Source: an uncultured bacterium (GTDB taxonomy: Bacteria > Muiribacteriota > Ozemobacteria > Ozemobacterales > Ozemobacteraceae). Taken from it: a stretch of 64,000 bases of DNA. Positions 8,329-58,254 of the stretch are shown here, piece after piece (position 1 is the first letter of the stretch; every line of letters starts with the position of its first letter). The DNA is taken from the NCBI GenBank assembly GCA_964472075.1, contig CAYYIY010000001.1:295-64294 (forward strand), read 5' to 3'. The notes beneath the pieces were generated by a model that worked only from the letters and a program-made list of their open reading frames with translations, did not search any database and was not told where the DNA came from. The translations under genes were made by a program, and so were the position numbers.

Positions 8329-9122
8329 TCAGACTATTTCTGATGACAGCATTGGTTTCGACGCTTTTGACACTCTCCGGATGTTACAGCGAGGGGGAGA
8401 AAGACCTTGATTCAGCTCGTGCCGCCTTGAAGCATCGACAGCCGAACCAGGCCATCAGGCTCACGACCCGCGCCATGCGTTACGGCGACCTGAACAAGGA
8501 ACGTCTGAGTTCCGCCCTGCAGATTCGCATTCGTGCCTTCACCGAACGTGCGGCTGAGGACAGCCGATATGCGGATGCGGCCAAAAACGACCTCGACGCC
8601 TGGGTGACCCTCGAGCCGGAAAACGCGCAAGCCTGGTTTCAGCGCGCCTATCTCTCGCTCTCCCGCAATGAACACGAGTCCGCCCTCCAGGATTTAAATA
8701 CCGGGCTTCTCAAAGCCGATCCCGATCAGCTATCCACTCATTCGCGACTTGCACAACCCTATGTTCGGCGAGCTTTGATTTTCATCGATCGCAAGCAGTA
8801 TGAGTCCGCCGAAAACGACCTGCAACGCGCCCGCGAACTTGACGACAAGGATCCCGATCTGCAGTATGCCTGCAGTTTTATCGCCGAACGTTCGGGAAAC
8901 AAAAAGGAAGCTCTTCATCTGATGGAACTGGCCGATTTTCTATATGCCCAGCGACAGGGAACGGCCTACCTGCTCGAAGCTCCCGTGGTCAACAATGCGT
9001 ATTTTCGCCGTTTGTACAAATTACGCGAAGCCTGTGGGCACGATCCCATGAAACGCTCAGAACGATTTGCCGAGGCGGCATCCCCGCCGTCGACAAAAGG
9101 GACGGAAAGCGCCGATGAGTAG
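8325..9122 (+). CDS. TPR-repeat lipoprotein
   Basis: Lipobox LLTLSGC near the N-terminus. TPR-like repeats follow. Confidence 0.7.
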   Translation: MIRLFLMTALVSTLLTLSGCYSEGEKDLDSARAALKHRQPNQAIRLTTRAMRYGDLNKERLSSALQIRIRAFTERAAEDSRYADAAKNDLDAWVTLEPENAQAWFQRAYLSLSRNEHESALQDLNTGLLKADPDQLSTHSRLAQPYVRRALIFIDRKQYESAENDLQRARELDDKDPDLQYACSFIAERSGNKKEALHLMELADFLYAQRQGTAYLLEAPVVNNAYFRRLYKLREACGHDPMKRSERFAEAASPPSTKGTESADE

Positions 9123-12100
9123 GCATCGGCGAGGCGGAAGCCGAGCATTCGCCCGGGCGGAGTGCGAACCCGGAATCGATTCACGCGGTTCGCTCTCGAA
9201 ACGCCCATCTTTCGCACCTGCATTCACATGTCTGCTCACGATCATTCTGTGCGTCTTTTCTCTTTTTTCGACAAGGACTTTTGCCGCCACAGCAACAGCC
9301 ACCGCATCGCCTTCCGTACCGCTTCTGGCGGGCTGCGAAATTGACTATCCGCCCTTCTGCATGGTCAAGCCCGATGGTCAGGCAACGGGGTTCGCAGTCG
9401 AGGTAATGCAGGCCGCAGTTCATGCCGTCGGTCGCGAGGTTGTCTTCGAAACGGGACCGTGGAGCGAGGTCAAGAGCCGGCTCGAAGCAGGTTCCCTTGA
9501 GGCCCTGCCTCTGGTCGGTCGAACCCCCGAAAGAGAAGCCGCGTTTGACTTCACCTTTCCGTACCTGACGCTTCACGGAGCAATTGCGATCAGAAGAGGA
9601 ACACAGGGGATACAAACCCTGGCTGATCTAAAAGGACGTTCGGTAGCCGTCATGAAGGGCGACAATGCCGAAGAGTTCCTGCGGCGGAATGATCCGGGGT
9701 GTCACATTCGCGAGACCGCCACCTTCGTCGAAGCGCTGCGAGAGCTTGAAGAAGGGAAACATGACGCCGTGGTGCTCCAACGACTGCTGGCTCTGCGCCT
9801 GATACAGGAGCACCGGTTTCAGCAGGTCGAGTTGGTTGCCGCCCCCATCACCGGGTTCAGACAGGATTTCTGCTTTGCCGTGAAAGAGGGCAATCGAGAA
9901 CTGCTGGCCCTTTTGAATGAGGGACTCGCGTTGATCATGGCCGACGGCACCTTTCGACGCCTGCATGCGCGCTGGATGGGTGCTCTCGACACCCTGTCGC
10001 ATCGACGCATCATCGTGGGCGGCGATCAACACTACCCCCCTTGGGAATTTCTCACTGAGAGCGGCGAGCCGACCGGGTTCAATGTGGATCTGATTCGTGC
10101 CATCGCTCGAGAAATGGGGGTTGAGGTCGAAATCAAACTCGGCCCCTGGCCCGACATAATGCGAGCCCTCGAACAGGGCGAGATTGACATGATTCAGGGC
10201 ATGTTCTACAGCCCTCAACGAGACGAGAGATTCGATTTTTCGAACGCTCATACCGTGAACAGCTACATCGCCGTCGTCCGACGTGATTTCGGGGTTCCTC
10301 CGTCAGAGGCACGCGAGTTTGGTAAACATCGCATCGCGCTCGAACGCGGTGATTTCATCGATGCCTGGGCGGTCGAACACGGCCTGAACGAGAATATCAT
10401 CAGGGTCGACAACCAGGAGTCCGCAATCAGAGCGGTTCTCAACGGCAACGCCGACTGTGCGCTCGTCGGGCGCCTTACCGCGCAGTATCTCATCAAGAAG
10501 TACGGGTGGACCAATCTGGTCTGTGGTCAGAAACCCCTAATCTCGCCGGAATACTGCTTCGCTTTTCGCAACGGACAGATCGCCCTTACCGGCCTGTTCA
10601 ACGAGGGCCTCAGCATGGTCGAAAAGACCGGCGAGTATCGAAAGATCAATGAAAAATGGTTCGGCGTACAAGAACAGAAACATGATTCTCTGTCCGCATT
10701 CGGACGTTTGCTGGCCATGGCGGCCGTGCCGCTTCTGGTCGTTTTCCTGATCTCCGCGGCCTGGACCAGGACCTTGAAGCGACAGGTCGCAGTTCGCACG
10801 GCGGAACTGCGCGACAGTGAAGCGCGTCACCGGCGATTGTTTGAAACCATGGCACAGGGGGTCGTGTACCAGGCGGCCGATGGGCGGATTATTTCAGCCA
10901 ATCCGTCGGCCGAACGTATTCTCGGCCTCACGCTTGATCAGATGATGGGTCGCACCTCCATGGATCCTTGTTGGCGCTCGATTCGAGAAGATGGCTCTGA
11001 TCTGCCCGGCTCAGAGCACCCAGCCATGATCGCCCTGCGAACCGGGCAGCCCGTCGGCCCGCACATCATGGGTGTCGCCCGCCCCGACGAGCCGAACCAC
11101 CGCTGGCTGCGAGTGAGTGCGCGGCCACTGTTTCGCCCCGGTGAAGAGAAGCCGTATCAGGTCTATGCGACACTCGAGGACATCACCGAGATTCGGCAGG
11201 CGCGCGAAGAGTATCAGCAGCTCTTCCGCCTGATGATGAACGGATTTTTGCGCGGAGAGATTGTCCGCAACCCCGACGGTCAAGCCGTGGATTTTCGCTT
11301 TCTGGCAGTGAACCCGGCTTTCGAGCGATTAACCGGCCTGAAGGCTGAGACGACGATCGGTCGTGCCGCGCGCGAGGTCATTCCTGATCTCGAGCACTCG
11401 TGGCTCGATATCTACGAGCGCGTGGTGACCACCGGAGAACCTGTACAATTCGAAAACGCTTCGCGAGCGCTGAACAAGACTTTTGACGTCAGTGCATTTC
11501 GTACCGGCCCGAACCAGTTTGCCGCGATGTTTTTCGACATCACTGAACGACGACGGGCGGAAGAAGAGCGCGCTCAGTTGCACGAACAGCTTCTTCAGGC
11601 ACAGAAGATGGAATCGGTCGGTCGGCTCGCCGGAGGCATCGCTCACGACTTCAATAACATTCTCGGGGTCATTCTTGGTCGGCTCGAACTTGTGATGGAA
11701 GATTTGGGCGAGAATCATCCGCAACGCCACAGCCTGCTCGAGATCGAGCGAGCGGCGCAGCGGTCAGCGGAATTGACCAGGCAGTTGCTGGCTTTTGCCC
11801 GCAAACAGACAGCGATGCCGCAGGTGATACAACTGGGCAACATTGTCGATGGCATGTTATCGATGCTGGCACGACTGCTGGGCGAAAATATTCGCATCGA
11901 ATGGAAACCCGCTCAGGATCTCTGGCACATTCGCATTGATCCGGTACAAATGGATCAGATTCTCGTGAATCTCAGTGTCAACGCGAGAGATGCCATCAAG
12001 GGAACAGGGGTGATCGTCATCACGGCGGAAAACGTGACGGTGAAGCAGGATACCACCGATCGTCTACTGGGCACGGCTCCCGGGGACTATGTTCGGCTCG

Positions 12101-12750
12101 GTTTTCGCGACGACGGATGCGGGATGCCGCCGCATGTCAAAGACAAGCTGTTCGAACCATTCTTCACCACCAAAGACGTCGGCAAGGGCACCGGGCTGGG
12201 TCTGGCGACCGTCTACGGCATTATGAAACAAAACGGCGGTTACATCGAGGTGCAAAGTGAAATCGGGAAAGGTACTACCTTCCGGCTTTATTTTCCACGT
12301 CATGATGCGGGACCTGACGCTGCAGTTTCAAACGACGCCGCGCTGTCATTTTCGAAGCGTCCTTCTGGTGCGACAAATTCGTCGGGACAGACGATCCTGT
12401 TGTGCGAAGACCGGGCCGACATTCGCGATCTCACCAGCCTGATGCTCGAACGGTGCGGATATCGCGTGCTTTCCGCTTCCTCGCCGGGAGAAGCGCTGGC
12501 GTTTGTACAAGATCGAGCGAGCGAAATCAGCCTGCTGATTACCGACATCATCATGCCGGATATGGATGGTCGAGAACTGGCCCGGAAGGTGACTGCCGTG
12601 AATCCACGCATCCGCTGTTTGTTCATGTCCGGGTATACGGCTGACGTCATCTCATCGCAGGAAGATCTCGATGAAGGGATGACATTCATTCAGAAGCCGT
12701 TCACTTCCGTCCACCTGGTCGGCAAGGTCCGCGAACTTCTCGAAGGGTGA
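9115..12750 (+). CDS. hybrid sensor histidine kinase: 2x periplasmic SBP_bac_3 solute-binding domains, TM, 2x PAS, HisKA, HATPase_c, REC
   Basis: The ORF track start at 9067 is a TTG; the ATG at 9115 precedes a signal-like segment. Motifs seen: [10 protein letters not shown] (H-box), [33 protein letters not shown], and a C-terminal receiver ([10 protein letters not shown]...DIIMPDMDG). Confidence 0.8.
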
Positions 12751-20002: not shown

Positions 20003-23000
20003 GTGAAGACGGCGTTGAGAACAATTGGCGCACGCAGCCACACTGGCGTGGTACGACAGATTCGACGAATAGAGGATCTACTCCCCGGTGATCACCTGTG
20101 TTGCATCTATTCAGATGATGAAGAGCGTCGTCGTCTTCTTGCCAGATTTCTGCACGACGGGCTTGAACGCGGTGAAAAGGTCGTCTATGTCGCCGACGAG
20201 ACGACCGTCGATGAAGTGTTTTCGTTTATCGATTCTGCCAGGTTTTCGATCACGACGCTGCGTGAACGTGGGCAACTGGTTATCCTCCATTCACAGGAAG
20301 CCTACGTGCGAGCCGGGGCCTTCGACCCCGCCGAGATGATCAGCCTGCTGCGCGTGCTGTGTGAGGCGGCGAGAAAAGAGGGCTATACGGCCCTGCGTGT
20401 GACCGGCGAAGCATCATGGGTCTTTCGTGGCCTGCCCGGTTCTCACCGGCTGATGGAATACGAAGCGCTGGTGAACGACTTTTTTCCCGGCTCAAACTGC
20501 ATTGCGTTATGCCAGTATGACCGCCGTCGCTTTCCGCCTGAACTGTTGCAGCAGGTACTGGCAACGCATCCGTTCATCGTGTTCGGTGGTGAAGTGCGTC
20601 AGAATCAATTCTCTCTGTCGCCGAACGATTTTTTGACCGGAAACATCGCCGAGAGGCAGCTCGAACGGCAGCTCGAGAGTATTCAGGTTTCCTCAGAGAT
20701 CGAGAGAGACCTGCATCGCTTCTTCGCCGCTTCTCCGAACCTGGTGTGCATTGCCGGCGTGGATGGCTACTTTCGGATGGTGAACCCGGCGTGGACGAAG
20801 ATGCTGGGGTATTCTGAATCAGAGTTGCTGACGAAGCCGTTTCTCGACTTCATTCACCCGGACGATCACCGTCGCAATGATCTCGAGGTGAACGCGCTGA
20901 TGCAAGGAAGGATCACGACCAATTTCGAGAATCGCTACCTCGCGAAAGATGGTACCGTTCACCACATCCTCTGGACGGCAACTCCATACGTCGAGGAACA
21001 GATCATGTTCTGCATCGGCAATGACATCACCAGACTCAGAGAGCAGGAATCGCTGATGAGAACGACACTGGAACACGATCGACGCTTGCGAGAGGCGCTT
21101 GACAGTGTTCCGGCCTGTGTGTTCATGAAAGACGCCCAGTTCCGTTACTCGTATGCGAATCAGACGGTTCAACATGTTCTCGGTCGTCGTTACGAAGAAA
21201 TCATCGGGAAAGAAGATGCGGAGTTGTTTCCTGATGACGTGGCGAAAAGATTGCGAGCAACGGACCAGCGCGTACTCGAGGGGGCGCAAGCCCTCGATGA
21301 GGTCATGGTTCAAACAGGTTCGGGGGCGCGGGTGTTCAAGGTGTTTAAAGCACCTTTGCGGGCGAACGATACCCAATCAAAGTGCGTGGGAATTCTGGGA
21401 ATCTCGACGGACATCACCGATGCCCGACATCAGGAGGTGTGCCTGAAGAATTCGCTGGCTCAGGCGCAGCAGCGCGAACAGGAAATGGAACTGCTGCTGC
21501 ATGCGGCCAGGCAGATTCTGAATACGGAGGAGTTTAAGGACATCGTCACTCAGACGTACCCGTTGATGAAAAGCCTGCTCGGCTTTCAGTGCGGTTTCGT
21601 GAACATTCGTCTGGTACCAGATACCGCTGAGACCGCCATTCTGACAGATGTGGGAACGAACGCGGTCTGTTCGCTGCCAATCCCTGAGACCTTTGCTCTC
21701 AGCGAGTTTCGACGGTATCTCTATTCTCGAGCTGCGCCGCTGCGGATCACGGATTTCTCAAAAACACCCGTGCCGTGTCACTTCCCTGAAGGTCATGTGC
21801 CGCTCTACAACGGGTTGTGCATCCCTCTCATTCTGGATGAGCAGGTTCAGGGGTTGATGGTGTTCGGCAACAAGCCGGGAGGTTTTACCGAGAGAGATGA
21901 GCAGTTCGGACTGGCGTTTGGGAATCTGCTGACGATCGGATTGCACAACGAACGGCAGAGGAGAGCGCTGCACAGATTGTCGACCGCCGTCGAGCAGTCG
22001 ACAGACGCGGTGCTGATTACCGATGTCTCAGGCGTGATTCAATATCTCAATCCTTCGTATCTTGCGCTGTCCGGTTACTCGAGCGACGAATGTCTGGGCA
22101 GAAATCCTCGCATGTTCAAAAGCGGAGTACAAGAAACAAACTTTTATCAAGAGCTCTGGAAAACCATAAGCGATGGACGAGTGTTTCGTGGAACGTTTGT
22201 AAACCGCCGAAAAGACGGCGGCACCTGGGTCATGGAGACCACGGTCAATCCGGTGCGTGACTCAAACGGCAAGACCACCCACTTTATCGCCATCGGGCGC
22301 GACGTCACCCGCGAGCGCCAACTTGAGCGACAGTACCAGCAGGCCCAGAAGCTCGAAGCGATCGGTCGGCTGGCCGGCGGTATCGCCCATGATTTCAATA
22401 ACATTCTGCAGGTAATGTCGTGTTACATCTTTTCGATTCAGGAAGGGTTGCCGGAAGGACGATTTCCGCGTGACGAGGTTGACGAAATAGGACAGGCGGT
22501 TGACAAGGCTGCACACCTGGTAAAGCAGTTATTGACCTTCAGCAAACAAGAACCCCCCCGGTTCGGCAGTGTGAACGTCGATGAGGTCATCACGAACTTG
22601 CTGAAGCTGGTGCGTCGGGTTCTGGGCGAGGACATCGAACTGCGGTTTTCACCTTCAGGTGATCTGCCGCCTATTCGTGCCGATAGAACCCATCTCGAAC
22701 AGATACTCATGAATCTCGTGGTCAACGCACGCGATGCCATGCCGGAGGGGGGAAAGATTGCCATCGAGACGAGACGCGTTCGCTTCGATACTGCTCTGCA
22801 TGACGGTAGCCGGCATTTGTCCGCCGGTAATGGTGTCCAGATTCTGGTGCGTGACAGCGGCTGTGGGATATCGGATGCAAATCTCGAGCACATCTTTGAG
22901 CCGTTCTTCACCACGAAGGAAGTCGGCAAAGGAACAGGGCTGGGGCTGGCGACCGTCTTCGGCATAGTTAAACAGCATCAGGGGCTGATTGACGTGAAGT

Positions 23001-23485
23001 CCTCGCTCGGAGTCGGCACCGAGTTTACTCTCACGTTTCCCGCTCTCGCCCCTGAGTCGACGAACGAGCAGCATCATGAACCTGAAAGCGTTGTGGTTGG
23101 CGGCCATGAAACCATCCTGCTCGCAGAAGACGATCAGATGGTACGGAACATCGCGGCACAGATTCTGCGCACTGCCGGGTATCAACTGATTCTTGCGTGC
23201 GATGGTGAGCAGGCCCTTCAATTGGCGCACGACAACGAAGGACGCATCGATGTGTTTGTGCTCGACGTCATCATGCCGAAGAAGCGAGGCCGCGAGATCT
23301 TTCTCGATCTTCGCCGTCTGTGTCCGAGATCGAGTTTTCTGTTTGTCAGTGGTTATGGGCCTGAGTTACCCGATCTGCAGCAGGTTGATGGAAGTTTTGA
23401 ATTTCTCGCCAAGCCGTTTTCCCCCGGAGTGCTGCTACGAAAGATTCGTGAACTGCTCAAGCGGAAAGAGGTAGGGAAGCCATGA
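20003..23485 (+). CDS. hybrid sensor histidine kinase with N-terminal MEDS domain, multiple PAS, GAF, HisKA, HATPase_c, REC
   Basis: GTG start with GGGAGG RBS. The N-terminal 190 aa match the MEDS pattern ([33 protein letters not shown]...NCIALCQYD). Then come a PAS array, the H-box [10 protein letters not shown] and a C-terminal receiver. Confidence 0.8.
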
Positions 23486-26352
23486 ACGAAAAGCGCGCAC
23501 TGGAATTCCTGGCCCAGACCAGCAGTCTGGCCCATGTCGGCGGCTGGGAACTGGATCTGCGGACAAACCGTCTCGAATGGACGGAAGAGGTCTATCGCAT
23601 TCACGAAGTCGATCTCGATTTTCAACCGACGGTCGAAAAGGGAGTGGCCTTTTATGCTCCAGAATCCATACCCATCATCTCAGAGGCCGTGCGGAGAGCT
23701 TCGACCGAGGGTGAGCCGTTCGATCTTGAACTGCAGCTGATCACGGCAAAGGGAAACCGCCTGTGGGTGCGCTCGATTGGGCAGGCTTATCGTGAGAACG
23801 GCGAAATTGTGAGAATCGGCGGCGTCTTTCAGGACATTACGGCCCAGCGAGCCATTGAAGATGAGTTGCGACAAAGCCGCGAACGACTTGAACAAACGGT
23901 GCAGGCAAGAACGAAGCAGCTGGAAGAAGCGTTGCACGGTCTTGAACAATCGAAACGGCGAATCGAAGAAGCGAAAAAAGCCTGGGAGGAAACCTTTGAC
24001 GCGATTGGCGACGGCATTGCTCAGGTCATCAACTTTCGCTTCGTTCGCTGCAACCGCGCGTTTGCCTCCATTTTCGATGTCACTCTGAGTGATGTCATCG
24101 GCAGGGAATGCCGAGAAGTTTTCGGAGAGCGTGCGTGTCTTGTTCTGAGATCGTATGCCGAAACGGTTTTGCACCACGGTGTGCGTGAACAAACCGAAGT
24201 GTTTGTGCAAGATCACTGGTATGAAGTCGCCATCGAACGCATGGAAAGCGCGGAAGCGGCCGGGATACTGTTGTTCATCTTTCGTGATGTCACGCAGCGA
24301 AAACGTGATCAACGACAACTTGAACTGAATGAGGCCAGGTTCGAGAGTCTCTATCGTATCTCACAGTTTCAAGGTACGAGACAGCAGATGCTGGATTTCG
24401 CTCTCGGAGAGGCAATTAGGCTCACGAACAGCGCGATCGGTTATATCTACTACTACGATGAGAAGACCGAGTTGTTTACGTTGAACACTTGGTCGAGTGA
24501 CGTCATGAAAGAGTGCCGGGTGGTCAAGCCGCAGACGGTGTACGAATTGAGCAAGACGGGGATCTGGGGCGAAGCGGTGAGACAGCGCCGGCCAATCATG
24601 GTAAATGAGTATCACCTGCCCAACCCATTGAAAAAAGGCTACCCGGAAGGACATGTCGCTCTGCATCGATTCCTGACCATTCCGGTAGTGATCGACGAAC
24701 GCATCGTCGCCGTCGTCGGCGTGGCCAACAAGGCTGATCCGTATGAAGAGACAGATCAGCGTCAGCTGACCCTGCTGATGGATGCGGTCTGGCGCATCGT
24801 CGAACGTCGACGCCTCGACGAGGAATTGCAGCAAATGTCACTCGAGTGGGAGGAGATTTTCCACAGTATCACCGATCTGATCACCGTGCAGGATCTCGAC
24901 TTCAATGTGACCAAGGCGAACCGTACTGCGACCGATTTTTTCGGACCTTCATTACTGAACAATCTTGGTAAGATCAAGTGTTATCAACTGTTTCACGGGA
25001 CTGATCATCCGCGACCGAACTGCCCGGTGTGTCTCTGTCGACAAACCCTGAAACCGGAATCGTTTGATTTCTATGAACCTCTGCTGAAGAAGCACATCGA
25101 AGTCCGAAGCATTCCACGATACGACAAACAGCAGCAGTTGATCGGCTTTCTGCACGTTGCTCGCGATGTAACCCAGCATCGCAAGGCCGAACAACAGCTG
25201 CGGCAGGCACAGAAGATGGAAGCGGTCGGCCAGCTTTCGGGCGGCGTCGCCCATGATTTCAACAACATTCTGCAGGTGATCACCTGTCACACCTATACCA
25301 TTCTGAGTGAGTTATCACCCGGTCGGTTTCCGTTCGACGAGGTCAAAGAAATCGAGATCACCGTGGAAAAGGCTGCCTATCTGGTCAAACAGCTCCTGAC
25401 TTTCAGTCGACAGCAGCCAGTACAAATGACCCGCATTGATCTGAATGCGGTGGTCACGGGTTTCAGCAAACTGCTGCGCCGTGTGCTGGGCGAGGATGTC
25501 GAACTGGCTCTTCGCCTTGAGAACGGGATTCTTGCCCTGCAAGCCGACAAGGGACAGATCGAACAGGTGCTGATGAATCTCTGTGTGAACGCTCGCGATG
25601 CCATGCCACGCGGTGGTCGCATCACCATCGAAACCCTCAGGGCTTCAGGAGAGGGAAGAAAATCTATTGGTGGTGCCGACATGCCGCCCGTCGTGATTGA
25701 AATGCGGGTGTCCGACACCGGAACCGGCATTCCAACCGAGAATCTCGACCGGATCTTCGAACCATTCTTTACCACGAAAGAAGTGGGGCGCGGCACGGGG
25801 CTGGGCCTGGCAACGGTCTTTGGCATTGTACAGCAGCATCACGGTCGCATTGATGTCACCTCGACAGTTGGCCAGGGAACAACATTTGCCGTTGTTTTTC
25901 CGGCGATCGACACCGTACCCATCGAGGGGCGCGAGACAGAATCGAGTCTGCAGGCCCTGGGCGGCAACGAAGTTCTTTTGCTGGCCGAAGATGACGACAC
26001 GTTGAGACAGTTGATGACCGACTTTCTGACTCGAGCCGGGTATCGCGTGCATGTCGCCGCCGATGGTGCCGCGGCGACCTCTCTTGCCGAGAAGCTGTTC
26101 TCGGAAATCGACTTGTACATATTCGACGTCGTCATGCCGAAGCAGCGCGGCGATGTCATCATGGAGCAGATCAGAGAAAAACGCGCCGATGCGCGATTTC
26201 TCTTTGTCAGCGGTTACGGAGCCGGTTTCATGGAGAAGGTTGCCAATGATGCCCGCTGTCTGTTTCTCTCGAAGCCAATTTCCCCAAGACTGTTACTACA
26301 GAAAGTGCGTGCCATGCTCGATGCTGTGCATCAACCCCAATCCTTGACGTGA
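23482..26352 (+). CDS. hybrid sensor histidine kinase (PAS, coiled coil, GAF, Cys-containing PAS, HisKA, HATPase_c, REC)
   Basis: Overlaps the previous gene by 4 nt. Motifs seen: [12 protein letters not shown], a CPVCLC motif in a PAS-like module, and the receiver LLAEDDDTL...DVVMPKQRG. Confidence 0.85.
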
Positions 26353-34074: not shown

Positions 34075-36351
34075 TCAGTGCGACAGGATCTGGAACTGTC
34101 GAACCATATACAGATTATACCCCAGCGGAGTCGTTTCAAGAAAGCTGAGTTCCGCGGAAACACGTTGCCCGGCTGCCAACCCCGCAACTCCGGGTGAAAA
34201 GCGCAGCTTATGCACTCCCCCATCGGAGGTTCGAAACTTCCAGGTTCGGTTCAGCGGATCGTAGGAATCAAGAATGCCCATGACCGGTTTCAGCGCCGAT
34301 AGACGCTGTTGTTCGACGGCCCGCTGAATGCGCCCCGGTTCGACGATCTGCCTGACACTCTGCGAAACGCCGAGAAACGGCGCATCAGCGGTGTACCATG
34401 TCAACAGAATCGCTGCGAGGCCGACTGCGACAGCGACCACGCGCAGACGTCGGCCCGGGTCTTCGGGAATCGAGTCCCCGGCGCACAGATGCACTTCGCG
34501 CAGACGTTCGAGCAGATCATTCAAGCGACTCTCGACCTGATCGGCCCACACTTCGCGCAATCGCGCCACGGCTGCCGATTCACCGCCCGCTCCATACATG
34601 CGTCGAAACTCACTGAGGCACTCATCGGCCAGCTTCTGCAGAAACTCGCGACGACTGGTGGTTGTTGAAGCGGCGGCCAGACCGCGCAGTTCGGCAATCA
34701 GGCGGTGATCCGGATTCACCCGGATCAGACGCGCAATACCATCCAGCAGATCCTGTCTCGAACCGGACCGCAGGTGTTGCATGACCAGCGGACGCACGCG
34801 ATTGAAGTCCATCTGCAACAGTCCGGCCAATCCGGCTCGCAGCGCCCGCGGATCAGGGTCCTTCAGCCAGGTATCGAGACGACGGAGAAAAGCGGCGCCT
34901 TCCTGGCGGCGGAGAATGCGAACCGCCTGTGAGGCGACAAAGGCGGACTCATGGAAGGCAAGAATCGGCAGATGTGAGGTCAGGCGGCGTACCGCATGGC
35001 ACTCGAGGTACCGCATGACCACTAAAAGCAGTGACTGTGGCGCATGAGCGAGAAGGCTTTCGCCCCAGTCGATACATCGAGGATCAGCAAACCCGTGCCG
35101 CTGAAAGGCGATGAAGGCTTCCTGAGCGATCTCGGGATTACGGTCCCTGCGCTCAGCCAGAGGCAGATAGCGGGCGGCGATTTCCTGTGACGTAAGCGTT
35201 TCTCCGCCGCTGCCGGCATTCGGTTGCTGATGTCCGACCCCTGTGACCGGTACAGAACCGTGTTCACGGTCGCTGGTCGGTCGAGTCGCGTCGGGTGTTG
35301 CCGAAACGGCTTTTGCCACAGCGATGGGAGACAGTGCCGAGAGTGCTTCCTGTTCGGCACTTTCGCGTAATCGCCGGCAAAGCGCGGGGAGAGATCCCTT
35401 CTCCATTCCGCTCAGAATCAAGGCATGAGCGGCCGCCTCGACCAGTGAGTCCAGATCACCGGCATCTGGATGACTGATCGCCAGAAATGCCAGTTTACGC
35501 GCGAATCCGGTGTTGGGATTGCTGCGAATCAGCACAAGCAGCATTTCATGCGAGTGCGGTGGCACCCGACCGCTTTCGATAAGTCTCAGCAAGGCTCCAG
35601 CCGTTTCCTCGAACGGAAATTGAAACAGGAGGCCGATACCAATGCCGCGTTGAGCCGCGTCGGGGTGATCGAGAAGCTCTTCAAGCAGTCTCAGTGCCTG
35701 TTCGGGAACATAGCGATAGAGAAGCCGCAACGCGAGGGCGCGCACCAGAAGCGACGGCTTCTGCAACAACTCCGGCACAAACGTCAGCGTTCTTTCCGGT
35801 GCCAGTTTCGCGGCAAAGTACACGGATCGCGCACGGACACCCGTAGCGGTGTGAAACAGCATTACCCGCAAAACCTGTTCGTTAACCTCGCGAAACGGAA
35901 AATCCTGTCCCAGTTTGATCAATGCCTCAGCCGCTTGCGACGCATAATGAGAGGCAAACAGTTTTTCTATCAACTGCCGACGCTCTTCCGGGAGGAGTTT
36001 CCGCAGCGGTTCCACGAGCTCTCCGTATCGATCGGGCGTGACGCTCAGCACATCGACCGGAAGAGATGTCGCGGACCGTTGGTCAGGCGCGACCGCCCCG
36101 GGCGGCTCCTGCTTTGCCAGAGTCTGCTCGAGAAAGAAAGCCACTTCGGGATCCGACTCGCCGGCCTGATGTTCAAGCAGCGCTGTGCGCACCTCTTCAC
36201 GGCTGATCTGCGTGCCAAGCTGAAAAATCGCGGCGAGCCGGACGTTCCGTTCGCTCGAGGACAGATCGAAGATCAGTTCCTCAATCTGATGACTTGAAGG
36301 TGAGGGTGCCATGGTCATTTTCATTGTAACGCCGGCGACAGCCTTTTGCAT
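34075..36351 (-). CDS. HEAT/PBS-lyase-like repeat protein with C-terminal TM segment
   Basis: Long helical-repeat sequence with one hydrophobic helix near the C-terminus (VVAVAVGLAAILLTWY). The start is moved to the ATG at 36351 because the ORF-track start at 36414 would run through the conserved upstream element and promoter of the divergent hemerythrin gene. Confidence 0.6.
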   Translation of the reverse strand: MQKAVAGVTMKMTMAPSPSSHQIEELIFDLSSSERNVRLAAIFQLGTQISREEVRTALLEHQAGESDPEVAFFLEQTLAKQEPPGAVAPDQRSATSLPVDVLSVTPDRYGELVEPLRKLLPEERRQLIEKLFASHYASQAAEALIKLGQDFPFREVNEQVLRVMLFHTATGVRARSVYFAAKLAPERTLTFVPELLQKPSLLVRALALRLLYRYVPEQALRLLEELLDHPDAAQRGIGIGLLFQFPFEETAGALLRLIESGRVPPHSHEMLLVLIRSNPNTGFARKLAFLAISHPDAGDLDSLVEAAAHALILSGMEKGSLPALCRRLRESAEQEALSALSPIAVAKAVSATPDATRPTSDREHGSVPVTGVGHQQPNAGSGGETLTSQEIAARYLPLAERRDRNPEIAQEAFIAFQRHGFADPRCIDWGESLLAHAPQSLLLVVMRYLECHAVRRLTSHLPILAFHESAFVASQAVRILRRQEGAAFLRRLDTWLKDPDPRALRAGLAGLLQMDFNRVRPLVMQHLRSGSRQDLLDGIARLIRVNPDHRLIAELRGLAAASTTTSRREFLQKLADECLSEFRRMYGAGGESAAVARLREVWADQVESRLNDLLERLREVHLCAGDSIPEDPGRRLRVVAVAVGLAAILLTWYTADAPFLGVSQSVRQIVEPGRIQRAVEQQRLSALKPVMGILDSYDPLNRTWKFRTSDGGVHKLRFSPGVAGLAAGQRVSAELSFLETTPLGYNLYMVRQFQILSH

Positions 36352-36360
36352 GTCAGCGAG

Positions 36361-36424
36361 TGTTTCGGCTACACCTCGGTAGGGAGCAACGTTCGGCCTG
36401 TTCAGGCACCTCACCGAGAATTTC
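36361..36424 (+). promoter_or_regulatory. conserved 64-bp upstream element, copy A (second copy at 60894..60957); precedes sigma70-like -35 TTGCGG (36444..36449) and -10 CACAAT (36467..36472)
   Basis: About 84% identity by eye (54 of 64 positions) to copy B. The distance from the element to the -35 box is 19 nt in both copies. Confidence 0.5.
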
Positions 36425-36517
36425 TGTTTGCCTGCTCGAATACTTGCGGTTTCGATTCAATTCGCGCACAATAGAGGGCAATCACGCGATTGTCGTCCTG
36501 TGGAACGGGAGGGGGGC

Positions 36518-37003
36518 ATGCCGGCAGGCTCAGAGATTAACAATTCGATTCTCAAGCTCTCTCAAGAACACCGGGTGTTTCTTGAAGTGCTCGAGAAGCT
36601 CGAGCAGTTGTTACTGGAACCCGACCCGCAGAAAATGCTGAGCAATCTGCAACCCTGTGTAGAAGACCTGTATGAAAAGCTGCAAACGCACTTTCTCTTC
36701 GAAGAGAACGTGATCTTCAAAGCTCTTCTGGTCGGGATTCCAACCGATCGCACGATCGACAAGGTCTTCGCTCTGGTGAAACAGCACGGCATATTCCTGA
36801 ATCATCTGCAGTATTGGCAGAGACTTTCCGTGGTCTACGACGCGGAGAATGCCTCGCACCGTCGTTCTCAACATCAGAATCTGGTACAGTTCATCGATCT
36901 TCTGAAAGTTCATGTAAAGGCGGAAGTCGAGGGCATTTACCCGATGGTTGCGCAGAACCCGCGCTGTCTGCAGATCATTGGCACTCTTTCCGGAGATGCT
37001 TGA
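36518..37003 (+). CDS. hemerythrin-like (HHE cation-binding) domain protein
   Basis: ATG at 36518 with a G-rich RBS. H/E-rich helical motifs are present (HRVFLEVLEKLE...HFLFEENVIFKAL...HGIFLNHLQYW). Confidence 0.7.
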   Translation: MPAGSEINNSILKLSQEHRVFLEVLEKLEQLLLEPDPQKMLSNLQPCVEDLYEKLQTHFLFEENVIFKALLVGIPTDRTIDKVFALVKQHGIFLNHLQYWQRLSVVYDAENASHRRSQHQNLVQFIDLLKVHVKAEVEGIYPMVAQNPRCLQIIGTLSGDA

Positions 37004-37064
37004 ATTCTTGCTTTTCGACCGTTCTGGTCGCCGCGGCTCACGTGTACAGGCGCGCCTCGCACCG

Positions 37065-39743
37065 ATGCATCACACCCTGTTCCGCCTGTTTCTCCTTTTC
37101 TGTATCGTCCCTTCTTTATTCGCTTCTGCTGCCGACAATAAAACATATCAGGTAGTACGACTGGCCCTGAAGTGGCGACATCAGTATCAATTTGCCGGAT
37201 ACTATGCCGCTGTCACAAAAGGTTTTTATCGCGATGAAGGGCTGGACGTTCGACTGGTCGAAGGGGGAACGGACGGGATCACGGCCGAAGATCGACTGAT
37301 GCGCGGTGATGCTGATTTCGCCGTGGTCGGGCCGGAAATCTTTCGCCATGGGAACCAGCGCAACAAGCCGGTGATCCTGGCCTCCATCTTTCAGCACGCC
37401 CCTGATGTCTTCATATCTCTGGCTGAGCACGACTATGACCATGCGGAAAAACTGGTTGGTCGCCGAGTCATGGTCGAACAAGGCTACGGTGACGCTTTGC
37501 TTCTTCAACTCATGCGCAACGAGGGAATTGCCACGCCGGCCGTCCAGTTCGTCAAGCACACCTTTTCCCTCGATGACCTGATCAGCGGCCGGGTGGATGC
37601 CGTTCATGGATATTCGACGGTGGAACCCGGACTTCTGCAACGCCGCGGCATCGAGATTCGAACTATTTCCCCCGTCGATTACGGGCTGGTGTTTTACGGC
37701 GACCTGCTCGCCACCAGACAGGATTACGTCACCGCACATGCCGATATCATCGAAGGCGTGCGACGGGCTTCACTGAAAGGGTGGGAATGGGCGCTGCAGC
37801 ACTTCGATGAAACGGCTTCCTATATCCTGTCGCTGCCGGGAGTCTCTGAAAGAGGCGTTGACCGGTCTTTCCTTCAGTTTGAGGCGAAGAGCATGCAGGA
37901 ACTCATTCGCGCCGACATCATTCCACTCGGCCACATCAACCCTGCCCGCTGGGATCGTATGGCCAACCTTCTCGTACAAATGGGGGTCGCCGACGAACCA
38001 CCCTATTTCGAAACCTGGGTATATCAACCGGAACAGACAACGTATCGCTGGTGGTCTCAGACCGTGCTGATCAGCTGGGCGGTGCTGCTGTCACTGATTG
38101 GATTGCTTGCATACTCACAACGGCAGTTTCGCGAAATCATTCGCAAGCGAACGGAGTCGCTCGAGAATGAAGTAAAACAGCGACTGAAAACAGAGGAAGT
38201 GTTACGCACCTCTGAAAAGCAGTTTGCCAGCCTCTTCTGGGAAAGCCCGGAATGTCTGGCCGTGACGCGACGTTTTGACGGTCGCATGCTGCTCGTGAAT
38301 CACGGATTCGAAGCCCTGTTCGAGGCACCGCGGCATGAGATTGAAGGGCGCACTTCGATCGAACTGGGCATCTGGAAGAGTCGCGAGGCTCGCGATCGGG
38401 TGATTGCCGCACTCGATCAACACGGCAAACTTCGTTCGCATGAAACCGAGTTGGTCACCTTGAAGGGGCGAGCTTTCCCGGCTCTGGTCTCGGTCGTGCC
38501 GTATGAGTACCAATCGGAGAATTGTCTGCTCTGGATCGTCATGGACGTCAGCGCGCAGAAACAGCAGGAGCAGGAGCGGCGGCGTTACGAACAACAGCTG
38601 CAGCACGTACAGCGCCTGGAAAGCCTGGGCATCATGGCCGGCGGCATTGCCCATGACTTCAACAACATTTTGACCGGCATTCTCGGAAACGTGGAGCTGA
38701 TGTTCGACGAGCTGCCCAAAGACGCTGCTTGCAGCGAATCTCTGCAGGATATCCGGACCGCCGCGCTACGCGCTTCAGAGCTCACCAAACAACTTCTCGC
38801 TTATTCGGGCAAAGGGAGAAGTGAAAATCGCGTTCTGGAACTCAATGCGCTCATTCAGGAATCGGTACAGCTGCTCAAGCTGTCGGTTTCCAAAAAGGCC
38901 GAAGTGAATCTACGTCTGGCCTCATCATCACTCATCATGCGGGGTGATGCCGCGCAGCTGAGGCAGATCATGATGAATCTGGTCATGAACGCCTCGGACG
39001 CCCTCGAGCATCGTTCTGGTGAAATCAGCATTGCCAGCGGCTCTGAAGAGATCCCCACGGCATTCTCATCTGAATTTCAGCCAGGGGTCCTGCACCCGCC
39101 GGGGCGATATGTCTTCGTTGAAGTGCGCAACACCGGTTGCGGGATCGATGAATCTTTACGGCAAAAGATCTTCGAGCCCTTTTTCACCACGAAGTTTACC
39201 GGTCGCGGGCTGGGGTTGGCAGCCGTACTCGGTATCGTACGCAGTCATCGCGGGGTCATGCGCATCGACAGCGTGGTCGGAAAAGGGACAACCATTCGGG
39301 TGCTGTTTCCCGCATCGAATGATAAGATCGAAAATGTCGAGTCGGGCAGGAAAAATCAGGAGGAACGCGGTATGGAAAAGCAAGTGATTCTGGTCGCTGA
39401 CGATGAAGAACTGGTGCGCAAACTTGCCCGGGCCATGCTGGAGAAAGTCGGCTATGAGGTCATCGTCGTCGAGGATGGCCTGTTTGCCCTGGAAGAGATG
39501 CGGCGACGCAACGGCAAGGTGGATCTGGTCATACTCGACATGACTATGCCCCGACTCAGCGGCGACGAAACGTTTCGCGCCATTCAAAAAGAGTTTCCCG
39601 GCACCAGGGTTCTTCTTGCCAGCGGCTACACGGAAGGGGAACTGATGGATTCGTTTACCGAGACGAAGCCGGTCGGCTTTATCAGTAAGCCCTTCGAGCG
39701 AGACGATCTATTGAACAAGATCTCAGAAGCACTCTCTTCCTGA
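37065..39743 (+). CDS. hybrid sensor histidine kinase with periplasmic NMT1/SsuA-like substrate-binding domain, TM, PAS, HisKA, HATPase_c, REC
   Basis: The start is the ATG at 37065, which begins the signal peptide MHHTLFRLFLLFCIVPSLFASAA. The ORF-track TTG at 36948 overlaps the hemerythrin gene. Motifs seen: the H-box [10 protein letters not shown] and the receiver ILVADDEELVR...DMTMPRLSG. Confidence 0.8.
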   Translation: MHHTLFRLFLLFCIVPSLFASAADNKTYQVVRLALKWRHQYQFAGYYAAVTKGFYRDEGLDVRLVEGGTDGITAEDRLMRGDADFAVVGPEIFRHGNQRNKPVILASIFQHAPDVFISLAEHDYDHAEKLVGRRVMVEQGYGDALLLQLMRNEGIATPAVQFVKHTFSLDDLISGRVDAVHGYSTVEPGLLQRRGIEIRTISPVDYGLVFYGDLLATRQDYVTAHADIIEGVRRASLKGWEWALQHFDETASYILSLPGVSERGVDRSFLQFEAKSMQELIRADIIPLGHINPARWDRMANLLVQMGVADEPPYFETWVYQPEQTTYRWWSQTVLISWAVLLSLIGLLAYSQRQFREIIRKRTESLENEVKQRLKTEEVLRTSEKQFASLFWESPECLAVTRRFDGRMLLVNHGFEALFEAPRHEIEGRTSIELGIWKSREARDRVIAALDQHGKLRSHETELVTLKGRAFPALVSVVPYEYQSENCLLWIVMDVSAQKQQEQERRRYEQQLQHVQRLESLGIMAGGIAHDFNNILTGILGNVELMFDELPKDAACSESLQDIRTAALRASELTKQLLAYSGKGRSENRVLELNALIQESVQLLKLSVSKKAEVNLRLASSSLIMRGDAAQLRQIMMNLVMNASDALEHRSGEISIASGSEEIPTAFSSEFQPGVLHPPGRYVFVEVRNTGCGIDESLRQKIFEPFFTTKFTGRGLGLAAVLGIVRSHRGVMRIDSVVGKGTTIRVLFPASNDKIENVESGRKNQEERGMEKQVILVADDEELVRKLARAMLEKVGYEVIVVEDGLFALEEMRRRNGKVDLVILDMTMPRLSGDETFRAIQKEFPGTRVLLASGYTEGELMDSFTETKPVGFISKPFERDDLLNKISEALSS

Positions 39744-52160: not shown

Positions 52161-53717
52161 TCAGAGTCGGCGCACCGGGCGGCCGGTGCGGGTCGCGAGC
52201 AATTTTCGCGATTCGAACTCGAGGGTTTCATTGACCTCGCCGTCGAGTTCGTATACCCGCTTGGCGGCCAGCAGACCGGCGACCGTCTCTTTTTGACACG
52301 CTTCCCGACGCAGCGAGGTCCGCTGCAACTGCCGGCGTCTGATCCCGAGCGTGGGAAGTTCGCGATAGAGCAGGTTTTCGATGGCTTCGGCATCGGCAGG
52401 GCGGCACATGACGGCAAATCCGGTTCCGGGTCGCCCCTTCTTCATGAAGATCGGCGTCATGGCAACATCGAGAGCCCCGGCGCTCATGACGAGATCAGCA
52501 ACGTGTCCCAGCAGCTCGCCGGTTGCATTGTCCAGGTTGGTTTCGAGCAAGGTCACCATGTCAAGCTGTTTTCCCGAACTCACAGAGTCACCGAGAAAAG
52601 CTCTCAGCACATTCGGGTGCGCAAACTCCTTCTTCCCATGCCCGAAACCGACTCGATGATAGATAAATCCAGGCGGCAAGCCGATCTGCGCGTGCAATCC
52701 CCGCAGAATGGCCGCCCCCGTCGGGGTCGTCAGTTCGCCGACCACCCCCGGTTCGACAAATACGGGGAAACCTTCGAGCAGAATCGAGGTTGCCGGCGCA
52801 GGAACAGGCAGACGGCCATGCTGACAGGTGATAAAACCCGAGCCCAGCTGCACGGGGCCGGTAAACACCGAAGTAATGCCCAGATCATGCAGACAGATCG
52901 CGACTCCGACGAGATCGGCGATGCTGTCGCGAGCTCCGACCTCGTGAAAATGCACCTGGTCGGCCGGTTTTCCGTGAACTCTGCCCTCGGCTTCCGCCAG
53001 CGCCGCAAAACAGGCAAGAGCGGTGTCTCGCACGGCCGGGCTGAGGTCGGCCGTGCCGAGCAGATCGCGAATTTCGTTCAAACCGCGATGAACATGAGCA
53101 TGATCATGTTCATGCTCGTGCTTGCCACGTGATTCGAAGCGTTGAGCGCAGGTTTGACGGGCATGGTGATGATGGCCGTCGTGATGATGAGCATGTCGTT
53201 GATGATGTGACTCGCCATGCTTTTCCCTCTTTGCCTGCTTGTCTTTCTTCTTTTTTTCAGATTTGGCGGCTTTTCTCAGGCAATAGGCCTTTTCACGCTG
53301 ACACATCTTCAAATCCGCAACACCCCGCCGCTCTTCGTCCGACTCGTGATCATCGACTTTCAGCTTCAGATGCCCATCATGATCCTGATGGTCATGAGTA
53401 TCGTCACAGGAATGATCGTGGTGATGACCATGTTCGTGTTCATGCTCGTGTTCATGGTGATGATCGTGTGAATGCCCATGATCGTGGTCGTGATCGCCGT
53501 CTTCGCCGGAAGGGTCGTCGTCCGTCGTGTTGAAATAGGTGCCATCAAACCCCTTCCTGACCTGGCGCTCGACGATCAACTCCAGCCGCCCTTCGGCAAA
53601 AGGAATCGAGGCAAGCTGCCGGGAAAGCCGCTCAGGGTCGGCACCAAGATCGAGAAGTGAGCCGACCGCCATGTTTCCGGAAATCCCGGAAAACGGGTCC
53701 CAGTATAAGGTACTCAT
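52161..53717 (-). CDS. larC: nickel-pincer cofactor biosynthesis protein LarC (nickel insertase, DUF111/TIGR00299) with expanded His/Lys-rich insertion
   Basis: DUF111-like N-terminus MSTLYWDPFSGISGNMAVGSLLDLGAD. A roughly 150-aa low-complexity insert follows (HDHDHGHSHDHHHEHEHEHEHGHHHDH..KKKKDKQAKREKHGESHHQRHAHHHDGHHHH). The conserved C-terminal domain contains GRPG. It overlaps larB by 4 nt. Confidence 0.8.
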   Translation of the reverse strand: MSTLYWDPFSGISGNMAVGSLLDLGADPERLSRQLASIPFAEGRLELIVERQVRKGFDGTYFNTTDDDPSGEDGDHDHDHGHSHDHHHEHEHEHEHGHHHDHSCDDTHDHQDHDGHLKLKVDDHESDEERRGVADLKMCQREKAYCLRKAAKSEKKKKDKQAKREKHGESHHQRHAHHHDGHHHHARQTCAQRFESRGKHEHEHDHAHVHRGLNEIRDLLGTADLSPAVRDTALACFAALAEAEGRVHGKPADQVHFHEVGARDSIADLVGVAICLHDLGITSVFTGPVQLGSGFITCQHGRLPVPAPATSILLEGFPVFVEPGVVGELTTPTGAAILRGLHAQIGLPPGFIYHRVGFGHGKKEFAHPNVLRAFLGDSVSSGKQLDMVTLLETNLDNATGELLGHVADLVMSAGALDVAMTPIFMKKGRPGTGFAVMCRPADAEAIENLLYRELPTLGIRRRQLQRTSLRREACQKETVAGLLAAKRVYELDGEVNETLEFESRKLLATRTGRPVRRL

Positions 53718-57896: not shown

Positions 57897-58254
57897 GGCA
57901 AGACTGTCCTGTCGTTCTGATCAAACATTCTGTTCATTCTCCTCACATACATTTTCCATATCACCAGATGAGGTGTTCGCTTCGTTTTCCTCATACCTCA
58001 ATGATCTTCACTGAGATTGTAATGACTCATGACTCTCAAGCACACACCTTCTTCCGGTCCTTCAAGAGTGATGAGTAACATACTTCAGGGGCAGTCAAAT
58101 GAAGATCAGGCGCTATGTAGGGAAACTCGAGGCTTCAATAGGGCTTTTCCTGCAAACGCAACGATTTCATGTTATTGTACCATGATCGCAGCAACCAAGG
58201 TGAGGAGAGGTCTCAGTGATCAAGACCAGAAATCTTCGTTCAGGAGACGATGAC

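Follow-up and report, generated by a model that had tools for sequence, protein, structure and literature searches.

Genes and features at the two loci

Two direct copies of a 73-nt element, identical at 60/73 positions, lie in the 64,000-nucleotide stretch of DNA analysed here (the window): copy A at 36354-36426 and copy B at 60887-60959. The gene downstream of copy A encodes a hemerythrin-domain protein and that downstream of copy B an alpha-amylase; both assignments, already made in the original prediction, were borne out by domain hits. The copies and the promoters next to them are compiled in the following lines.

36354..36426, + strand: copy A of the probable MITE, with CAG...CTG termini (repeat family D8), with the hemerythrin promoter on one side and the divergent HEAT-repeat gene on the other
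36444..36472, + strand: resident hemerythrin promoter TTGCGG-N17-CACAAT, conserved in L007 and recognisable in L009 (context, outside the element)
60887..60959, + strand: copy B of the probable MITE, between the terminator of an MVP-like gene and the amylase promoter; the leftmost 3-4 nt are uncertain
60977..61006, + strand: resident alpha-amylase promoter TTGACG-N18-TACAAT, found by promoter scan and conserved in L001/L003 and L004 (context, outside the element)

The similarity of the two copies, put at about 84% by eye in the original prediction, indeed amounts to 84% in the alignment of 36357-36426 with 60890-60959. Beyond both copies the identity drops to background within a few bases (10-40% per 10-nt bin), the flanks being unrelated. 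The pattern of invariant positions gave 2 matches in the window as compared to 0 in 100 shuffles. In an nhmmer profile search, in which copy A scored E=1.4e-23, nothing else was found at E<0.1, that is, there is no third copy in the 64-kb window.

Copies A and B have the same orientation, and in both of them exactly 17 nt separate the right terminus of the element (CTG at 36426 and 60959) from the -35 hexamer. The distance of 19 nt given earlier is correct when counted from 36424 and 60957 to TTGCGG (36444) and TTGACG (60977), and becomes 17 nt from the true terminus. The two 17-nt spacers themselves are unrelated (5/17 identical, counted by eye). Early on it was suggested from the non-coding conservation that the element is a shared cis-regulatory module, such as an array of activator-binding sites, in which an internal direct repeat could provide the half-sites. 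Spelled out, this would be an array of activator or repressor sites kept at constant spacing from two promoters of one regulon. The common orientation and the exact spacing favour such an array, and so do the direct repeats of T(T/C)CGG inside the element and the position of the right terminal repeat, which would span about -69 to -53. This is a classical upstream-activator position. The supposed half-sites GTTTCGGC...CGTTCGGC are repeats of T(T/C)CGG, a motif resembling the core of a transposon terminal repeat (TIR), and the internal GAGCAACGTTCGG at 36384 likewise resembles the terminus.

Several features of the surrounding genes deserve a brief description. The hemerythrin gene is followed by a kinase gene at 36948, a pairing conserved in L006. 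Four large paralogous genes for hybrid histidine-kinase/response-regulator proteins (9067-12750, 20003-23485, 23482-26352 and 36948-39743) give rise to the repeat families D1-D7; the short tandem-like repeat family D4 (53094-53492) has its source in the gene at 52161-53717 (- strand), whose product combines a LarC-like N-terminus with a long His/Asp/Glu-rich tract and has His at 38 of its first 230 positions. The alpha-amylase (61042-62334, + strand) carries an Alpha-amyl_C2 C-terminal beta-sheet domain, and its homologues, otherwise from Riflebacteria/Wallbacteria, include plant alpha-amylases that are 37-49% identical. The gene just upstream of copy B (58216-60741, + strand) encodes a bacterial homologue of the major vault protein of eukaryotes; the Pfam domains MVP_shoulder (E=4.6e-25) and Vault_3 were recognised in its 841-aa product. 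The left end of copy B adjoins, with a 2-base overlap, an imperfect hairpin at 60865-60888, CGGATGA-N10-TCATCCG, to which a terminator-like score was given for the minus strand.

Orthologous promoters in related genomes

Both promoters had been described as sigma70-like. TTGACG-N18-TACAAT was picked up by the promoter scan, while TTGCGG-N17-CACAAT remained under its threshold, yet has been kept at the orthologous locus of relatives. By its protein homologues, the window belongs to Candidatus Ozemobacteraceae (Riflebacteria). In the nearest relatives compared, the amylase is 87% and 82% identical, and the HEAT-repeat protein 59% and 50%. At the hemerythrin locus the synteny is intact (kinase, hemerythrin, then the divergent HEAT gene, STAS, and further genes), and the promoter of L007 reads CTTGCGG-N17-CACAAT, with no element in front of it. 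The intergenic region comprises 99 bp in the relatives versus 193 bp in the window, and the missing part is exactly the element, which is absent from the orthologous site in L006, L007, and L008, as well as in the more distant L009. The contrast of filled and empty site is seen here within conserved synteny (L006-L008), and the empty site in L007 consists of a single TTTGCATGC, one step from each of the 9-mers that flank copy A.

The amylase promoter, too, is kept in relatives, as TTGACG-N18-TACAAT in L001/L003 and as TTGACG-N18-TACTAT in L004, together with the ribosome-binding region. The element is absent upstream of nine amylase orthologues (L001-L004 and L031-L035), where the upstream synteny differs, with another upstream gene in L001-L004, and copy B sits at a synteny break relative to the relatives; the more distant Riflebacteria amylase neighbourhoods among them (L031-L035, about 61 kb) contain neither the element nor a related transposase. 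An inversion or an ancestral adjacency was considered and found no support: the HEAT_2 protein upstream of the L001 amylase is not homologous to the HEAT protein of the window.

Judged by this comparison of loci, the element was inserted specifically in this lineage, and the inserted DNA has the same boundaries as the repeat. The original prediction had itself proposed to ask whether the element is conserved in orthologous loci. It is missing from the related Ozemobacteraceae promoters, although the promoters themselves are kept, so that the reading as a conserved regulatory module is refuted by the measure set at the outset. The insertion may nevertheless exert a secondary regulatory effect on its neighbours. 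The element appears to have taken the place of all the sequence upstream from about -53 at the two loci, and at copy A it would come between two promoters that stand back to back. On the minus strand the conserved ATTGTAACG (36325-36333) gives TACAAT, 10 nt ahead of the HEAT-gene ATG at 36312, and a putative -35 (ATGCAA) of this gene falls within the 9-mer duplicated on the left side of copy A.

With regard to the HEAT-repeat gene itself, the minus-strand CGTTACAAT with its TACAAT -10 in front of the ATG is conserved in the window (36310-36353) and in L006/L007, an arrangement which suggests that the HEAT-repeat mRNA is nearly leaderless. The annotated start of the gene varies between genomes, being 36324 in the window and an MQKA start further upstream in L007. 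A 779-aa ORF extends into the element.

The right end of the element

Read on the minus strand, the element starts with CAG(A/C)AATTCTCGGTGAGGTGCC. The longest block invariant between copies A and B, the 18-mer GGCACCTCACCGAGAATT, gave nine hits in an exact scan of metagenome contigs, eight of them by chance. The ninth, L017 (PVBE010611356.1), matches copy B over 22 nt exactly. The match lies in the 19-nt TIR, ACCAGCAATTCTCGGT[G/A]AG, of an insertion sequence (IS) of 1.7 kb, which codes for a 428-aa DDE_Tnp_1 transposase, and reaches the subterminal sequence of this IS. It is the sole IS found to share the same 30-nt end with the element. The reverse complement of the element aligns to it with 2 mismatches, over 29 nt for copy B and over 27 nt for copy A, where a gapped GGC extends the match, and the terminus of the IS falls exactly where the similarity of copies A and B stops. 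The terminal repeats at the right end are located as follows.

36410..36426, - strand: right TIR of copy A, CAGAAATTCTCGGTGAG, 16/17 identical to the TIR of L017
60943..60959, - strand: right TIR of copy B, CAGCAATTCTCGGTGAG, 17/17 identical to the TIR of L017

Homologues of the L017 transposase in the plasmid collection are annotated as 'ISNCY family transposase'. Recovered independently, via transposase homology in plasmids, eight further full-length IS copies from cyanobacteria and one gammaproteobacterium all end in CAGCAATT...AATTGCTG, and the terminus CAGCAATT is common to nine full-length copies. The right end of the element is the TIR of a DDE IS group annotated 'ISNCY family'. This result, together with the absence from orthologous promoters, speaks against a shared cis-regulatory module kept for both genes, as had been proposed.

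No cognate full-length IS or transposase was found in the window (tblastn, related transposase) or in the loci of the relatives. An 18-mer scan of the GTDB genomes returned seven hits, all due to chance, with only 18-21-mers matched; scans of viral contigs gave chance hits or nothing, and blastn of the element against plasmids one chance hit. Exact and degenerate scans of the genome and metagenome collections disclosed no other copy.

Left end and target duplication of copy A

The left end is less clear-cut, and in this respect the two copies differ. The features assigned at copy A are the following.

36345..36353, strand not applicable: left copy of the target duplication (TSD) of copy A, TTTGCATGT, 7/9 identical to the right copy
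36354..36368, + strand: degenerate left terminal repeat of copy A, CAGCGAGTGTTTCGG; anchored alignment to CAGCAATTCTCGG scores 6.0 at the boundary
36427..36435, strand not applicable: right copy of the target duplication of copy A, TTTGCCTGC, with 9 bp the TSD length of the IS group

For copy A the alignment to the terminal repeat is best exactly at the boundary, with a null fraction of 0.0033, or 0.03 when corrected for 9 offsets, which is suggestive of a degenerate terminal repeat in CAGCGAGTGTTTCGG. The left end of copy B showed no significant similarity to the terminal repeat, and neither the whole-element and internal inverted-repeat tests nor a structure with two TIRs or an internal hairpin reached significance. 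The 9-mers TTTGCATGT and TTTGCCTGC flanking copy A agree at 7/9 positions, and the chance of at least 7/9 is 0.0013. A target duplication was also found in 6/8 of the plasmid IS copies, with 9 bp in L026, L036, L039, L040, and L042, and 9 or 10 bp in L027. The flanks of copy B display no recognisable target duplication; the left terminus and the duplication of this copy may be obscured by the hairpin at 60865-60888.

The signatures of MITEs have been described as small size, lack of a transposase, a terminal repeat resembling the one in an intact IS, direct repeats on either flank, and sites that are filled in some genomes and empty in related ones (PMC3184786, PMC10969869), and their size ranges from about 50 to 500 bp (PMC10969869). 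The element has 73 nt and no transposase gene. One may ask at this point whether the two copies are rather what internal deletions have left of two independent full-length IS insertions, never having been mobilised as a miniature unit. Such relics would agree with the presence of a clear TIR at one end only, with the lack of a parent IS in the window, and with the missing target duplication of copy B. On the other hand, copies A and B agree in internal organisation throughout the 73 nt and in their left boundary, which two independent deletions would not reproduce, and copy A retains both termini (CAG...CTG) as well as both duplicated 9-mers. Two independent decays are unlikely on account of this common 73-nt structure and boundary, and we assign the relic explanation a low probability. 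Mobilisation as a miniature unit is the more economical reading.

Leader RNA and peptide

A leader RNA had been mentioned as a further possibility, and a riboswitch or a small RNA belongs to the same class of structured transcripts. The position upstream of genes is compatible with this idea, and copy A can form a hairpin. However, both copies are located upstream of the -35 boxes and thus outside the mRNA leader, and 3/6 pairs of the copy A hairpin are broken in copy B, with no compensation. Searches of Rfam, both at the gathering score and at E<=1, gave no match at either copy, and the fold z-scores for both strands of both copies range from +0.29 to -0.96. With no Rfam family, stable fold, or covariation, the leader RNA did not stand up to scrutiny, and a structured RNA of any of these types is highly improbable.

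A small protein or a leader peptide encoded by the element is given the same low rank. In both copies the + frame stays open and would encode a common peptide, (E/D)CFGYTSxGxNVRxVxAPHRE(F/L)L; furthermore, 7/11 substitutions fall on codon position 3, and the NG86 dN/dS is 0.46 in the + frame versus 1.1-2.7 or stops in the other frames. Neither value is significant: the position-3 excess has p=0.039 before correction for frames, and the dN/dS ratio is based on 11 differences. Moreover, the starts are unlike each other (TTG 5 codons upstream versus ATG 20 codons upstream), and the N- and C-terminal parts are not conserved. The peptide has no Pfam hit and no homologue among 5.8 billion proteins, and codon-degenerate scans of the GTDB genomes and JGI metagenomes, collections that do not include the source genome, gave 0 hits. 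There is hardly any likelihood of a coding function.

Distance to the -35 box and a possible target preference

The strongest point in favour of regulatory sites is the identical position of both copies relative to the -35 box. In this context full-length IS insertions in other organisms were inspected for the hexamer at offset 18-23 past the transposase-distal terminus. The insertions were picked without knowledge of their flanks, with L026 having prompted the test. Among the first 9 insertions the hexamer matches TTGACA at 27/54 positions, the top value of 108 combinations of offset and side, the next best being 22. For 12 independent insertions the match is 33/72 (p=2e-4; p=0.006 without L026), and at least 4/6 positions agree in 4/12 insertions versus 0.5 expected, a heterogeneous signal from a small sample. 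The hexamers at offset 18 include TTGACA (L026), TTGGCA (L040), AAGACA (L037), and TGGTCA (L042). In L026 the hexamer is accompanied by a -10-like TAAATT and a downstream gene. The IS in L040 has fragments annotated as conjugative-transfer protein on both flanks, the gene being apparently interrupted, and since this insertion apparently lies inside a gene, such a hexamer does not have to belong to a working promoter. As an alternative target motif, the IS's own terminus TTGCTG was tried and discarded; it matched at about 15/54 positions by hand count, near chance and worse than TTGACA.

It can be rationalized from these data that the fixed distance of 17 nt most likely reflects an orientation-specific target preference, which the -35 boxes happen to satisfy. 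We know of no description of a promoter-proximal target preference for this IS group. As the 17-nt offset recurs in full-length IS copies elsewhere, the fixed position does not discriminate an operator from an insertion. Against the array of activator or repressor sites speaks the recurrence of this spacing to a TTGACA-like hexamer for full-length IS in unrelated bacteria, one of them apparently intragenic, in addition to the transposon TIR at the end of the element, the target duplication around copy A, and the lack of the element at the hemerythrin (L006-L009) and amylase (L001-L004, L031-L035) promoters, whose core has been kept. We consider it an improbable explanation.

A separate observation concerns a second CAATTGCTG, the same sequence as the IS terminus, some 30 bp past the IS end, in the right flank of L036 (offset 28-36) and in L042 (26-34). 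Its occurrence in two unrelated plasmids suggests either that the IS inserted beside older relics of its own group or that its target is palindromic and CAGCAATTGCTG-like.

Origin of the element and relation to known systems

The element is very probably a 73-nt MITE derived from an IS end, which was acquired by this lineage beside existing promoters and is not maintained as a regulatory site; miniature IS-end derivative would be a looser name. Its source would be the transposase-distal end of a DDE_Tnp_1 IS from the group annotated 'ISNCY family', with CAGCAATT TIRs and 9-bp TSDs. The cognate transposase would bind the CAG(C/A)AATTCTCGG termini and insert with a 9-bp staggered cut, and the MITE may have been mobilised in trans. 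Both copies would have been gained in this lineage, immediately upstream of pre-existing promoters, with their shared orientation and exact spacing most likely dictated by the target preference of the transposase. The preferred target would comprise a TTGACA-like hexamer 8 bp past the duplicated 9-mer on the transposase-distal side, a pattern that the -35 boxes fit. A dispersed repeat family, which the original prediction had named as its fallback, was essentially right in kind, in view of the IS TIR, the 9-bp TSD, and the filled-versus-empty site, with two copies in 64 kb.

Correia elements have been described as sitting immediately upstream of genes (PMC3184786, PMC10969869). The element resembles both these Neisseria elements and Nezha of cyanobacteria, which is linked to ISNpu3, in its small size, the lack of a transposase, the IS-like terminal repeat, and the flanking direct repeats, as well as in the occurrence of filled and empty sites between related genomes and the intergenic, promoter-adjacent location. 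It differs from them in several respects: with 73 nt it stands at the small end of the range, its second terminal repeat is degenerate, it lacks a thermodynamically stable fold, no outward promoter was detected inside it, and two copies are seen in 64 kb.

With the 'ISNCY family' DDE_Tnp_1 IS, exemplified by those of Nostoc punctiforme pNPUN02, Acaryochloris marina S15, Saccharobesus litoralis plasmids, and PVBE010611356.1, the element has in common the terminus CAG(C/A)AATTCTC, the 9-bp TSD, and the orientation-specific offset to a TTGACA-like hexamer, and with PVBE010611356.1 in addition about 30 nt of subterminal sequence. In contrast to these IS, it has no transposase gene, measures 73 nt instead of about 1.4-1.9 kb, and resides in Candidatus Ozemobacteraceae (Riflebacteria). 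In E. coli, copies of IS5 inserted upstream of promoters activate these by means of sequence within the IS. There, as here, a transposon end is placed just upstream of a resident promoter and the native upstream DNA is replaced; unlike in the IS5 case, the position of the element has apparently been set by target choice and not by selection after insertion.

A more far-reaching proposal, to which we attach a small but appreciable probability, holds that the IS/MITE group homes to sigma-70 promoters, with its distal terminus 17 bp upstream of the -35 box, and that the miniature copies act as portable upstream modules. In that event the transposase-binding terminal repeat would be placed at about -69 to -53, and such modules could rewire, insulate, or co-regulate the promoters of the hemerythrin/sensor-kinase operon and of the amylase. 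If the target offset holds, IS of this group would systematically land where they can perturb promoters, and the group might serve as a promoter marker in poorly studied genomes.

As a MITE, or IS-end derivative, the element is of a kind already known and in this sense fairly ordinary. Its recognition removes a false lead, in that the non-coding conservation between two unlinked promoters reflects transposition and not a regulon. At the same time, it adds a previously undescribed miniature element from an uncultured candidate phylum, and points to an IS lineage that is active, or was so until recently, within the Riflebacteria/Ozemobacteraceae.
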